DNA of 64,000 bases from Escherichia coli (GTDB lineage Bacteria; Pseudomonadota; Gammaproteobacteria; Enterobacterales; Enterobacteriaceae): NCBI RefSeq assembly GCF_030384885.1, contig NZ_CP128614.1. One strand, 5' to 3'. The position numbers were made by a program. Position 1 is the stretch's first letter, and each line of letters opens with the position of its first letter. This document shows, piece after piece, positions 1 through 6,000 of this stretch.

Positions 1-3000
1 TCCGCAGCACAAAAGGAGGCAAAAGGGTTATGGGCAGACACCAACCCTGTCCCACCATGGCAGTGGAGACAGGCAAACGAAAAGCCCAGAAAGGTGAAAG
101 AGAAGAAATAACCATGATGAAAGAGCCTCATCCGTTACTTCAGTTGGTACTAAACGATTCCGGTCGTCTAACCATGCCTGTTTATTATAGAGATCAACAG
201 TATTGCCCGACTTGCCTTACAAAGGTGTTGAAGAGTGAGGATGGAAGTTTGGCGCACCTCGGGGAAATAAATCAAAATACATGTAGACCTTCTATTTCAG
301 TAGTTGTGACAAAAGCAATTATTGAAATGTTATGTGACGGGGAAAAAATATATGTAAATCCAATACGACACCGAGGCCGGGTGCTGGCACCCTCAGTAAT
401 TTTTTCTCCCGACACTCACACTTTCAAACCGTTTATAAATACAGACTATCAGCCTGTGGGAGCAAACTGGAAAAGTGAAAAGGGATATAAACTCGGTCTG
501 TTTTATCTCAAAGATCGAGCCAACTCTATCAATAAAGAGGAATTTGATTTCATTGCCGTTATAGACCCTGAGGCAATGCAGAAAGAATTTATTTCGGCCT
601 GGTCTGAGGTTGATGAAAAAAATCCATTGGAAACGCTGAAGCAGATCTTACGATCTAAAAACAACTCTTCTTTATGGGTAAAATGGCCTGGCAAAATTGA
701 GCATGCGCAAAAAGGAAATTACAACGAAAATTACTGGTTCGATTATCAATCTGATAATCAGGAAGTGAACTGTACGGTCTCTGTTGTAGGTATCGAAGGT
801 AACAGTTCCGGTGAGACAATTTATAGATTGCAAACTTTGCTAAAGCGTAAGCTCAATGAATATCAACTGGTTCGGTCTTTAGGGACTATTATGCTTCTTG
901 ATAATACCGGGAATATGATTCCATCAAACCATCCTTATTTTGAAGTCATCTCAAAAGCATGTATAAATGGAGTGCGTGACTTTGTTCGTCAAAACCCGTG
1001 GGTAGTCTGACGGTCAACTATAAAGCATAATATAATTAGTAATAACAAGGAACAGACATGAATGAAAACTCAGTAATCTTAATAAGTTTATTTTGGTTTT
1101 TTTTGGGATCGAGTGTTGTAGCTGGTTTTATGGATGCATCATTATATTGCTGGATTTTTGCAGCCATAAGCGCATTGTTTCTTCTTTCGGTGATACAAAC
1201 ACCAAAGGAGTTAACGGTATCTATTAGTCATATGACAAGCAAAACGCTGATCTCAAAGACAGATGATGGATACACATTTAGCATTTCACCTTACGGAGAC
1301 GGGTACCGCTTATCAGTCTCGCCTGAAAATCGTCACAATGGTACCCAAAGCTTTGACGGCTGGTTCCCACGTTTTTTTTCCGAACCACAGTATGCCAAAT
1401 CATCTTTAACTAAATTTCTCGGTGAGTCCTTAGTATGGGAAGAAGATTCAAGTAATGCTCTATGAGATTACTTATTATAAATTTTTCTATTAATCTCCAT
1501 GGAGTGATATATGAATTTGGCCTATTTTTTATTTTTGTCTATAACTGTTATGCTTACGAGCTTTATTATTAAATCACTTGTCGTATTGGTAAAGTTCAAA
1601 TTACTTCGTGATGAACGTCTCGAATATACCAGCAATAAAAATATTGATGAGATGTACGATTTAATGAATGCGAAGGAAGAAATCCTCATAAGGCATCATA
1701 AGCAGATGTTGGCATTGCATCTTTCACTATTAATATTCGTTCTATTTATTGCTTACATTTACTAAAAATAATTTTATTCAACATTTCAACAAAGGGTTTT
1801 CAATGGAAAGCTTCGAAACTGAACAAATGATTCAATATGCTTTCTACATAAATATCGTAATAACGACTGGTTTGGCATGGTTTTGCTTGCGGTCAGGATT
1901 GCATTACAATTTTTTCAGAAAAGCAGAGAGTGCCAGAACAAAAGGGCTGAGTAGTACCTCTACTGAACACGGTCCAGCAATAGTGAGACTAAAGAAGCTA
2001 CAAGCATTAGTAGATTTTATTAGTAACTGTGCTTTTCTAATCCTTTCAATTGGCACAGCTTATATTTTGTATGTTTGGAGCCACAGTTAACTCATACGAG
2101 GTAACTTCGGCAGGTAACAACTTCTAATGCAGGACTTTAATAACTCTAAGGGATTCTACATGAAAAAAGACGATCTAATTACGCGTTGTAAATTACTTAA
2201 AGGCGAACGCGATGAGTCTATCTTTACCATATTAATTGGGATAGTAGTAAAGCTGGGGCTGGTAGGCCTGGCATTCTATCTGTTGCTTGGTTCCACGATT
2301 GATTGGTCAAGCTGGAAAACTTATGCCGCCATGTTGATCTTGGGAGCATTTCTCTAAAATCTTGAACCTTTTTTCACTCATTACAAGCCATGACCTAGTG
2401 CGTAGATCATACGATCTTTAAACCTTATGTCATTGATTTATAAGTACATATAACAAAGATTATGTTAAATACTGTATGTATGTACAGCATCAACAGTTGC
2501 CCCCCTCATATTGAGGTAATTGCTACATTCATACCACTATTCTTCTTATAGTATCGACATCCTGAATTATTGCACCCTACTGCTTTGTCTTTAGCTGTTC
2601 CGAATTAAAATTCATTGCTCAATTTGGATCACATGACGATCAGCGTATTCCTTTGCTTTATCAAAGTTAAGTTTTTAAAACATAAGATATGTAATGACAA
2701 ATTCTCAATCTGATTTTCCTTTGAACGATCAAAATTTTCAGGCAGATTTGCTGAAAATCAAAAAGGTTTTCGCCGACCTTATAACGCAGGCATCAGATGG
2801 TAAGATACCCATAAGGTCTTCTCATGTACACGGCTTACACCATTTCGAGGAGCTCTACATCCGGGCAAGAGCAGGCATGTGTTCGGTCCTGGGATATCCG
2901 GTCATGGTTGTTTCAACTATCTCAGTTAAAGAGCCCGGCACAGGCATTTTTAGAGCGCTTCTTGCAGAATTGAAATGTATTGCAGATGAACAAAATTACA

Positions 3001-6000
3001 TTTTGAAAATTGAAAATGTACTGCCTCCCCTATTCCGCAAATACCTTATTCAAGAAGGTTTTGTTTTCCCAGGTGAACCTTGGATGTGTGGTTCCGGCTA
3101 TTGGTTTAAGAACCCACAAGTACTTCATGAAAATATTGAGTTATTATCTGTTTAAGTCGATCTAACAATTTCACTGGAGCTAACATGTCCCCGGAATTGG
3201 TATCAGACATTGCAAGAGTGGCGCATGAAAAGCTACTTTCAATTTTAACGGAGTGCGGCATAGAGAAGACGGCAGGCACTTGCCTTTTTGCAAGCTATCT
3301 TGTGTGTTATTTAGCAAAAACTAAAGGTCTAGATGCTGTTGTCCGTGGGGGTAACGGTGCAGATGATGGCGGTATATTTATAGAGTGTGGTGGCTTTGGC
3401 CATTATTGGTGTGAGTTGAATTTCGAAGAAGTGCAATATTATATTGACATCACTTCCGAACAGTTTGGGTTTCATCCATACATAGTGAAACTCGCCAACG
3501 ATATAACAGGATGGCCTCGATATATTCCTGGTGATCAGGAAACGGTCGATAGTTATTTAGAACAATTATTACGCGACGGCTATACAGAATAGGCTGCGTA
3601 TACCCTATCGCAGCCTTTCAGGCTCTTAACCCTTGTGACCTGTTAACGGAACCACTCAGGATGACGCTGCCGATCAACTTTGATAACCTGCGAATTAAAT
3701 TCAACGACATCCGCTGGAGTAAGCATTAATTCATCAGGATTTACAATAAATGGTCTTAAAACCACTTCGCCACCGTCTTCTTTTGCACCGTAGATATTAA
3801 TAAGAAAGTGCAGTCGTTGATTTCCTTCAGCATTGCGTTGCCATTCTCTAAAAGTCAAAGTTTGTTTAATATAGTTTGTTAAAAGAAATGCGAATTCAGA
3901 TTCTTCCGTTTGTGAGATACCGATTTTGTTAGACATTTTTTTTAGTATCTTTCCGAGCATGGACACACAGGCATCTAGACTTAACGATGTTGAAATTTTG
4001 GTCGTATTAAAATCCTCCTGCGAAAGTGAAATCATCCATGTATTATCTTTATGATAGTCGGTAATATAAATAAAATGAGATGTAAAAGGCGTTGAGTGAT
4101 TGAACTCTCCTAAGTTCCATCCATACTGACTCACTGTATTTGAGCTAAGTTCTTTGTCGGTAATGTTCATAATTCATACCTTTCGATAAAGTCTGTAATG
4201 ATAATTAGCTATCTCAAAGGACCAGAACAACTCTTGAAATAACCACACTCGAAGAATTTATCATATTGAACACCCCTACCTAATAACCTTGCCGACTTAA
4301 TAAATCACAATAGCCCTCCCCTGACATTTTAAAATGCTACTTGAATTTTTGATAGCTTATGGTTGTTTTATGTTCTTTGTGATACGCATATGTCATCTTC
4401 TCTTTCCAGTACCAATCTTGTAGATCCTGCAAGTCTAGCCCATTTTTCTCACGTATGCTTTCGTGTAATTCGCTAAGCGCGAGTTTATCATTAGGTTTAT
4501 AAATGGCTAATTTTTCTTCAAATAAATCCAGCCAACGTTTCCCCATCTTACGACGCAAAACAAACACCATCGTGATAAATGTAATGAAATGCACAGCAAT
4601 TAGTTCCAACTTATGCGATTGCTGACCAGATAAAATTACTATTGTAACAACAGGGATGGCCGTATATAAAGCAATCAAAGCGACCATAAGTTGGTATGGT
4701 TTTTCCCGTATTACCATGTTCATGGGTAAACCAGAGGACGCTACTGCTTGCCAAAATCTTAAAGGGGAGCCCGCAGAATTCGGAAAAAATCGTACGCTAA
4801 GGTTTTCCGGGCATCCGTAAGGGCCGAAACTTCCCGTCTTCCAGTCTGCGGCTCTGCCGCCAGACGTAATCGCCGGTTAGGTTGATGTGCTCCCAGCCCA
4901 GCGGCGACAGGAATTGCAGCAGCTCGCCGTCCACCGGCTTGCCGGCCTCGACCAACCCCTGGGTGGCGCGTTCCAGGTACACCGTGTTCCACAGCACGAT
5001 AGCCGCCGTCACCAGGTTGAGGCCGCTGGCCCGGTAGCGCTGCTGCTCGAAGCTCCGATCCCTGATTTCCCCAAGGCGGTTGAAGAACACCGCCCTGGCC
5101 AGCGAGTTGCGCGCCTCACCTTTGTTCAGGCCGGCATGCACGCGGCGGCGCAGTTCAACACTTTGCAGCCAGTCCAGGATGAACAGCGTGCGCTCGATCC
5201 GGCCCAGCTCGCGCAGGGCCACGGCCAGTCCGTTCTGGCGCGGGTAGCTGCCGAGCTTGCGCAGCATCAGCGAGGCGGTGACGGTGCCCTGCTTGATCGA
5301 GCTGGCCAGGCGCAGGATGTCGTCCCAGTGGGCACGCACGTGCTTGATGTTCAGGGTGCCGCCGATCAGCGGGCGCAACGTCGGGTAGGCTTGCACGCCC
5401 TGCGGCACGTACAGCTTGGTTTCGCCGAGGTCGCGGATGCGCGGCGCGAAGCGGAAGCCTAGCAGGTGCATCAGGGCAAAGACGTGATCGGTGAAGCCGG
5501 CCGTGTCGGTGTAGTGCTCCTCGATCCGCAGGTCGGACTCGTGGTACAGCAGGCCGTCGAGCACATAGGTGGAATCGCGGACGCCGACATTCACCACGCG
5601 GGTGCTGAACGGCGCGTACTGGTCGGAGATATGGGTATAGAACAGCCGTCCCGGCTCGCTACCGTACTTCGGGTTGACGTGCCCGGTGCTCTCGCCCCGG
5701 CCACCCGCGCGGAAGCGCTGGCCATCGGAGGATGAGGTCGTGCCGTCGCCCCAGTGGGCGGCAAAGGCGTGGCGATACTGGTGGTTGACCAGCTCGGCCA
5801 AGGCCGCCGAATAGGTTTCGTCGCGGATGTGCCAGGCTTGCAGCCAGGACAGCTTGGCGTAGGTCAGGCCGGGGCTCGACTCGGCCATCTTGGTCAGCCC
5901 GAGGTTGATCGCATCACCGAGGATTGCGGACAGCAGCAACGTCCTGTCTTTGGCCTCGGCCCCGTCCTTCAAGTGGGTGAAGTGGCGGCTGAAGCCCGTC

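Follow-up and report, generated by a model that had tools for sequence, protein, structure and literature searches.

The 64,000-nucleotide stretch of DNA analyzed here (the window; Escherichia coli assembly GCF_030384885.1, contig NZ_CP128614.1) is part of an IncHI2 plasmid, a context that was absent from the first-pass annotation of the sequence. Near the left end of the window lie two co-directional open reading frames (ORFs), ORF153 (2694..3155, plus strand) and ORF135 (3185..3592, plus strand), which are preceded by a gap of 336 bp that runs from the stop of a 76-aa ORF (2357) to the ATG of ORF153 (2694). Within this gap a LexA-type operator (SOS box) lies flush against a dif-like XerC/XerD recombination site. 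We propose, with a probability that we put at roughly 0.4, that the box is a true LexA operator that makes ORF153-ORF135 SOS-inducible in this IncHI2 lineage only.

The ORF list bears out the two ORFs of 153 and 135 aa that the first-pass annotation had placed about 200 bp downstream of the box; they are spaced by 29 bp, and ORF135 stands behind a GGAG ribosome-binding site. The 76-aa ORF (65-76 aa; 2160..2357, plus strand) is hydrophobic, corresponds to a hypothetical protein in pSTM6-275, and is the last gene of an upstream co-directional cluster; it lies in the conserved flank to the left of the dif-like site. The sequence between these genes had been described as an AT-rich intergenic region, and the 336-bp gap is there, but it is a mosaic rather than plain intergenic DNA, with a left part of 113 bp that ends in the dif-like site followed by a 189-bp insert. 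The left flank, which begins at 1226 or 2101 and ends at 2470, is 98-99% identical in L004, an IncF plasmid from Enterobacter, and L007, a Logan contig, and the homology with both stops exactly at 2470, where it gives way to divergent right flanks. On the other side, homology to relatives of ORF153 starts at 2660 (L010) or 2672 (L008 and L009). The lineage-specific segment that is left (2471..2659, plus strand, 189 bp, 38% GC) joins the dif-like site to the ribosome-binding-site region of ORF153, and the box is its first element. No relative of the segment that might reveal its origin was found in plasmids, E. coli genomes or phages, and outside the lineage the gap has matches only at the dif-like site. 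Inside the lineage, 647 plasmids of Salmonella, E. coli and other Enterobacterales, of which pSTM6-275 is an example, share the region from 2100 to 3700 at 99% identity or more.

The box has the features expected of a strong LexA operator. A perfect match to CTGT-N8-ACAG had been claimed at 2470..2487, and reading the sequence at that position gives TACTGTATGTATGTACAG, with the CTGT-N8-ACAG core at 2472-2487. The complete operator is the 20-mer TACTGTATGTATGTACAGCA (2470..2489, assigned to neither strand), which differs from TACTG(TA)5CAGTA by three mismatches, none of them within CTG or CAG, and which has an AT-rich center and TA flanks. Its heterology index is 4.0 with a matrix rebuilt on the basis of 29 E. 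coli boxes, from which all values are approximate; the same matrix assigns 5.0 to the recA box, 4.1 to the sulA box, 1.0 to umuDC and 1.9 to the plasmid's own umuDC box. Functional E. coli boxes have an index well below ~15, the cutoff quoted in PMC12211044. The box ranks second, behind the umuDC box, whether the comparison covers the window or all 275.8 kb of the reference plasmid. In 30 Mb of simulated first-order Markov sequence modeled on the backbone, a model that under-predicts simple repeats such as (TGTA)3, an index as low as 5 was never reached, nor was one as low as 9 reached across 242 kb of related loci.

Public metagenomes were scanned for exact copies of the 22-mer ACTGTATGTATGTACAGCATCA, which gave three matches, one in an IncHI2 contig and two in unrelated GC-rich contigs. 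In one of the unrelated contigs (L053) the identical 22-mer lies upstream of imuA, whose product scores 199.7 bits with the NCBIfam ImuA model, for which the cutoff is 150. In the second (L054) it lies immediately 5' of the ribosome-binding site and ATG of a 102-aa ORF, and that contig also encodes an S24-type repressor. Judged by these gene contexts, the identical 22-mer serves as an SOS operator elsewhere, and the matches outside IncHI2 are convergent SOS boxes. Taken together with the quality of the site, we consider it likely that LexA binds the box at 2470.

Additional LexA boxes on the plasmid provide a further point of comparison. CTGT-N8-ACAG occurs six times in the window versus 0.74 expected, and the excess is largely explained by the fact that four of the five other matches sit in known or expected SOS contexts. 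The best box in the window, TACTGTTTATACATACAGTA (index 1.9; 46941, in the region 46941-48657), lies 19 bp 5' of a umuD/umuC-like operon with Peptidase_S24 and IMS domains, and the box GACTGTACAAAAAAACAGTC (39177-39196) lies before the integron integrase gene intI1 (39207-40094). Two more, at 21148-21167 and 35634-35653 with indices of 4.9 and 4.6, are each found directly 5' of a minus-strand transposase gene of the IS91/ISCR family, the two transposases being 497 aa and 513 aa in length. A 2025 preprint describes LexA binding in electrophoretic mobility shift assays and LexA/SOS control of lacZ fusions for the transposase promoters of ISCR1, ISCR2 and ISCR8, and TACTGT was taken there as the putative -10 element of the ISCR1 transposase promoter. 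That boxes of the same class stand at ISCR-type, intI1 and umuDC operators in the same window supports, by analogy, a true operator at 2470. A common origin of the right flank of the 2470 box and the flank of the ISCR1 box was considered and rejected. The two align with a score of 29 versus a shuffle mean of 17.6, but the umuDC box gives an equal local alignment score, and thus the similarity reflects the LexA consensus rather than shared origin.

Several observations concern the surroundings of these boxes. The umuDC-like operon would be only a few kb from the 2470 box in an undisrupted backbone, which in the window is broken right after the locus by a GC-rich resistance region of ~41 kb (4797-46000). 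This region holds five IS26-like ORFs of identical length (240 aa), a Tn3-family transposase fragment, and a class A beta-lactamase gene at 7384-8259 that is CTX-M-like by eye. The intI1 ORF is just 295 aa long and is directly followed by an IS26-like ORF at 40128-40850, and the integrase therefore appears to be truncated. Outside the window, a LexA-like sequence with an index of 9.2, CACTGGTTTTAATTACAGGT (~10185-10204 of L057; 60085-60104 of pSTM6-275), is located 17 bp 5' of a plasmid tyrosine recombinase gene that is divergent from an hha-like gene.

The second element of the gap, the dif-like site AGTACATATAA-CAAAGA-TTATGTTAAAT (2443..2470, plus strand), consists of a C arm at 2443-2453, a spacer at 2454-2459 and a D arm at 2460-2470, and is the only convincing site of its kind in the 275.8-kb reference plasmid. 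The XerD arm matches TTATGTTAAAT at 11 of 11 positions, and together with the CAAAGA spacer it is as in the dif-like sites of HI plasmids (PMC10132070 Table 8). The XerC arm is degenerate, with agreement at 7 of 11 positions with (A/G)GTGCGCATAA. The XerD arm and the LexA box have zero spacing and share T2470; we found no description of a LexA operator flush against a dif-like site in the literature on LexA and Xer sites. An identical 28-mer is present in pHCM1 (L005), where a transposase gene of the ISNCY/IS1202 family lies on the C-arm side and CTT immediately precedes the arm, CTT being the target duplication reported for ISSen13 (PMC10132070). The same layout, as read from the position of the transposase gene and the CTT, recurs at related sites in an R478-type IncHI2 plasmid (L002) and in one of type IncHI1 (L003). 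The IS1202 family is reported to target dif-like sites (PMC10132070; bioRxiv 10.1101/2022.12.17.520857). The window's site shares with these IncHI sites the 11-6-11 architecture, the XerD arm and the spacer, but its XerC arm is more degenerate and no insertion sequence (IS) adjoins it. The idea that 2430-2470 is itself an IS terminal repeat was not supported by an inverted-repeat search or inspection of IS ends, and the literature shows instead that such IS target the dif-like site.

Position 2470 is a recombination junction with three different right flanks. In the window it is followed by the box and the gene pair, in the Enterobacter IncF plasmid (L004, 3085-3920) by a GNAT/DUF1778 toxin-antitoxin pair, and in the Logan contig (L007, 2484-4000) by a gene for a 318-aa protein and then distant homologues of ORF153 and ORF135. 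This pattern suggests module exchange at the XerD side of a dif-like site in Enterobacterales plasmids, with XerCD as the putative catalyst of the junction at 2470. Alternative gene modules on one side of the same dif-like site are reminiscent of the dif modules of Acinetobacter, although the IncHI2 locus differs from these in that it has no second, inversely oriented bounding site. A candidate for such a site, AGTGGTTTTAA-GACCAT-TTATTGTAAAT (3739-3766, minus strand), was rejected; it is weak, it lies inside a 175-aa ORF, and homology with L002, L008 and L009 runs through it unbroken. This sequence is conserved in relatives and is probably a chance match.

What would the box regulate? The first-pass annotation saw no recognizable function in either product, a view that the predicted folds revise for both. 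The predicted fold of ORF135 is transglutaminase-like, with a papain-like core in which Cys33 is at the N-terminus of a helix and His73 and Asp88 are on adjacent strands, forming a predicted and conserved Cys-His-Asp triad. The ORF135 family comprises 188 cluster representatives (proteins P0028-P0171 among them), which are mostly from Proteobacteria and mainly stand-alone proteins 130-165 residues long. Across the family C33 and H73 do not vary, D88 is nearly invariant, and the members have a GG.G..DGG motif. The ORF135 query had no Pfam match, Transglut_core was matched weakly (E 0.0018) by just one of 63 relatives, and no Pfam, NCBIfam or PADLOC model covers the family, which appears to be an undescribed family of small transglutaminase-like proteins. 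Its predicted Cys-His-Asp arrangement likens ORF135 to transglutaminase-like or papain-like enzymes such as Atu2299, the SseI deamidase domain, TglA, LapG and protein-glutaminase, but it has only ~135 residues.

ORF153 is a small protein with a predicted fold that is weakly GNAT-like, and it has no sequence match in Pfam, NCBIfam or solved structures at any reported threshold. Profile comparison indicated that ORF153 and ORF135 are unrelated to each other, and scans against PADLOC and PHROGs yielded nothing informative. The conserved part of ORF153 is its C-terminal ~60 residues, which is also the only part in common with an IncHI1 157-aa protein encoded upstream of an ORF135 homologue, and this suggests that the C-terminal part of ORF153 is the part that pairs with ORF135. 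The 157-aa protein (L003, IncHI1 plasmid p1512eTc1, 2686-3159) is chimeric, its last ~60 residues matching ORF153 and its N-terminal part being unrelated and acidic. The ORF153-ORF135 pairing recurs in IncHI1 and IncHI2 relatives. Among 41 loci of the ORF135 family no conserved partner gene was found, and outside IncHI plasmids there is no conserved partner.

On the reading that we favor, the 189-bp segment, with the box as its first element, became attached in one IncHI2 lineage to the only dif-like site of the plasmid, on its XerD side, which would have put the box before a pre-existing pair of genes for the GNAT-like and transglutaminase-like proteins. In undamaged cells LexA would occupy 2470-2489, and the bound repressor would block either initiation from a weak promoter, with the XerD arm or TACTGT as its -10 element, or read-through from the upstream cluster. 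Upon DNA damage, RecA-stimulated cleavage of LexA would permit transcription through a leader of ~200 nt into ORF153-ORF135. In relatives L008-L010 the pair is an internal pair of operon genes with an unrelated gene 82 bp upstream. In the IncHI2 lineage the 189-bp insert must supply or gate expression of the pair; any dedicated promoter would have to be carried by this segment. A weak -10 element could be provided by TACTGT, the half-site of the box at 2470-2475. The stretch from the upstream cluster to ORF153 contains no predicted terminator, which places the box on the path of any rightward transcript and makes read-through past it possible. The exact arrangement is kept in ~630 sequenced plasmids, and 252 of 5426 complete E. 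coli genomes contain the gap, which can be counted in favor of selection for the arrangement. Our search of the literature on LexA and IncHI2 plasmids found no description of this locus.

A number of findings weigh against a regulatory link between the box and the genes, the foremost being comparative. ORF153 homologues at five other loci in four contexts (L003, L007, L008/L009 and L010) have no LexA box, nor does L002, and 41 loci of the ORF135 family from Pseudomonas, Burkholderia, Sphingomonas and others have no gamma-type box, and no alpha-type box in an upstream position. In the R478-type IncHI2 lineage, ORF135 is kept at 95% identity and ORF153 and the gap are replaced by a serine-protease cassette that has no box. 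The lineage that does carry the box is nearly clonal, and conservation inside it is consequently uninformative. The distance from the end of the box to the ATG of ORF153, ~204 bp, is long for an SOS gene. Umu-type (umuDC/impCAB), intI1 and ISCR1/2/8 Prcr operators resemble the 2470 box in having CTGT-N8-ACAG on a resistance plasmid or mobile element, but they lie within ~20 bp of the gene start or over a defined -10, whereas the 2470 box lies far upstream and has no convincing overlapping promoter, and the genes downstream of it have no link to DNA repair or recombination. The reliance of the index on an approximate, rebuilt matrix is a weakness, and the core CTGTATGTATGTACAG is the simple repeat C+(TGTA)3+CAG.

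The promoter predictions also count against the link. In a position-weight scan with approximate matrices, for which the median best score of the background was 7.3 bits per 320 bp of backbone, the candidates that overlap the box scored 6.6-6.9 bits and none exceeded the background. The rightward one, TTTATA-18-TATGTT (2437..2466, plus strand, 6.9 bits), is weak and has its predicted start inside the box. The top-scoring rightward candidate in the gap, TTGTCT-15-TAAAAT (2585..2611, plus strand, 8.2 bits), is ~95 bp 3' of the box and outside the normal reach of LexA. A promoter prediction tool found no rightward promoter in the gap.

It had been suggested that an unannotated small ORF or leader could lie between the box and the genes, but none that is convincing emerged. 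The small ORFs at 2440-2720 are just a 24-aa ORF with a TTG start and a 26-aa ORF with an ATG start, both of them unconvincing and not conserved, and no peptide resembling an SOS toxin is encoded there. A search for a tisB/dinQ-like arrangement, with either a structured RNA or a short ORF for a hydrophobic peptide behind a ribosome-binding site located 3' of the box, was negative. Folding of the 221-nt leader gave no signal of structure (z = 0.58), and a permissive Rfam scan of 2000-3000 returned two matches at chance level only.

Thus the idea of a DNA-damage-inducible plasmid module, as put forward in the first-pass annotation, stands in part. The site is an excellent LexA-type operator and the sole candidate regulatory element upstream of the pair; the box is not found in relatives and the overlap with a promoter is not convincing. 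As ORF153 and ORF135 relatives elsewhere occur without a LexA box, the comparative evidence indicates that the box does not belong to the genes and that SOS control is not a property of the module as such. SOS control, if it occurs, would be an acquisition of this one IncHI2 lineage.

An alternative explanation, possible but on balance unlikely, is that the box is an orphan or relic operator, which binds LexA and has no output on ORF153 or ORF135. It would be the truncated 5' end of another SOS unit that was recombined to the dif-like site, and the pair would be transcribed either by read-through or from the promoter candidate at 2585-2611. The position of the box exactly at the recombination junction and at the extreme end of the 189-bp segment speaks for this, as do the placement of the top promoter candidate out of reach, the 204 bp to the ATG and the absence of a box from relatives of either gene. 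A relic ought to have decayed, but the site is still close to consensus, an objection that is softened by the fact that the lineage is young and clonal, so that the time for decay was perhaps too short. Also against this reading, a LexA dimer bound at the box would still obstruct read-through transcripts.

The zero spacing between the box and the XerD arm, with T2470 shared, raises a different possibility, namely that the target of LexA is the recombination site. LexA would occlude access of XerD or FtsK to the plasmid's only dif-like site, and Xer recombination would occur mainly upon LexA cleavage, an idea that we regard as improbable. Dimer resolution or exchange of XerD-side modules would then be licensed by DNA damage in this dominant epidemic IncHI2 lineage, at a time when RecA-driven recombination makes plasmid dimers; this part of the idea is no more probable than the first. 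That the site is the single convincing one on a 275.8-kb plasmid, that it is the junction for at least three alternative right-hand modules (window, L004 and L007), and that transposase genes of the IS1202 family, which reportedly targets dif-like sites, lie on the C-arm side of identical or related sites, all speak for this idea. Other IncHI lineages carry the dif-like site without the box, however, and coupling is thus not required; the adjacency may simply mark the position of the crossover. The degenerate XerC arm (7/11) is a further difficulty, and we found no precedent in the literature for such coupling.

It is also conceivable, though distinctly improbable, that the relevant signal is a leftward promoter, TGTACA-16-CATAAT (2486 to 2459; 2459..2486, minus strand), from which a transcript would cross the dif-like site and run antisense into the 76-aa gene. 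The Rcd transcript is made from within the cer site of ColE1, and a leftward transcript here would loosely resemble it. The candidate is weak (9 of 12 consensus positions, 6.6 bits), with a -35 that lies within the box and a -10 that falls on the XerD arm and spacer, and a second, stronger leftward candidate, ATGACA-16-TATGAT, was found in the promoter scans at 2433-2406 (minus strand). The first does not score above background, RNA folding of the 116-nt leftward region gives no structure signal (z = 0.51), Rfam yields no match, and there is no leftward ORF of note. Finally, the notion that the box is a chance product of a TGTA microsatellite that LexA does not bind in vivo, which the C+(TGTA)3+CAG core and the lineage-specific location at a junction might suggest, is highly improbable given that the TA flank and the CAG likewise agree with the consensus, that the index of ~4 is far below ~15 (PMC12211044), and that the identical sequence serves at imuA in an unrelated contig.

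Resistance plasmids are already well known to carry LexA operators, the kind to which the 2470 box would belong, and the type of dif-like site is known as well (PMC10132070). To our knowledge, what is new is the flush juxtaposition of a LexA box and a dif-like site and the presence of alternative modules on the XerD side in IncHI2-type backbones. Expectations would not be overturned by these features unless coupling between LexA and Xer recombination is real. The XerD side of the IncHI dif-like site would be a module-exchange junction in Enterobacterales, a behavior that so far has been described mainly for Acinetobacter.

The IncHI2 lineage is a main carrier of multidrug resistance in Salmonella and E. 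coli, and the same replicon has known or expected SOS-controlled elements in umuDC, intI1 and the ISCR transposases. If the box indeed controls ORF153-ORF135, antibiotics that induce the SOS response, such as fluoroquinolones, would switch on an extra plasmid function, which could be a pair of protein-modifying enzymes. Less likely, SOS induction by antibiotics may act on the plasmid's own Xer site.

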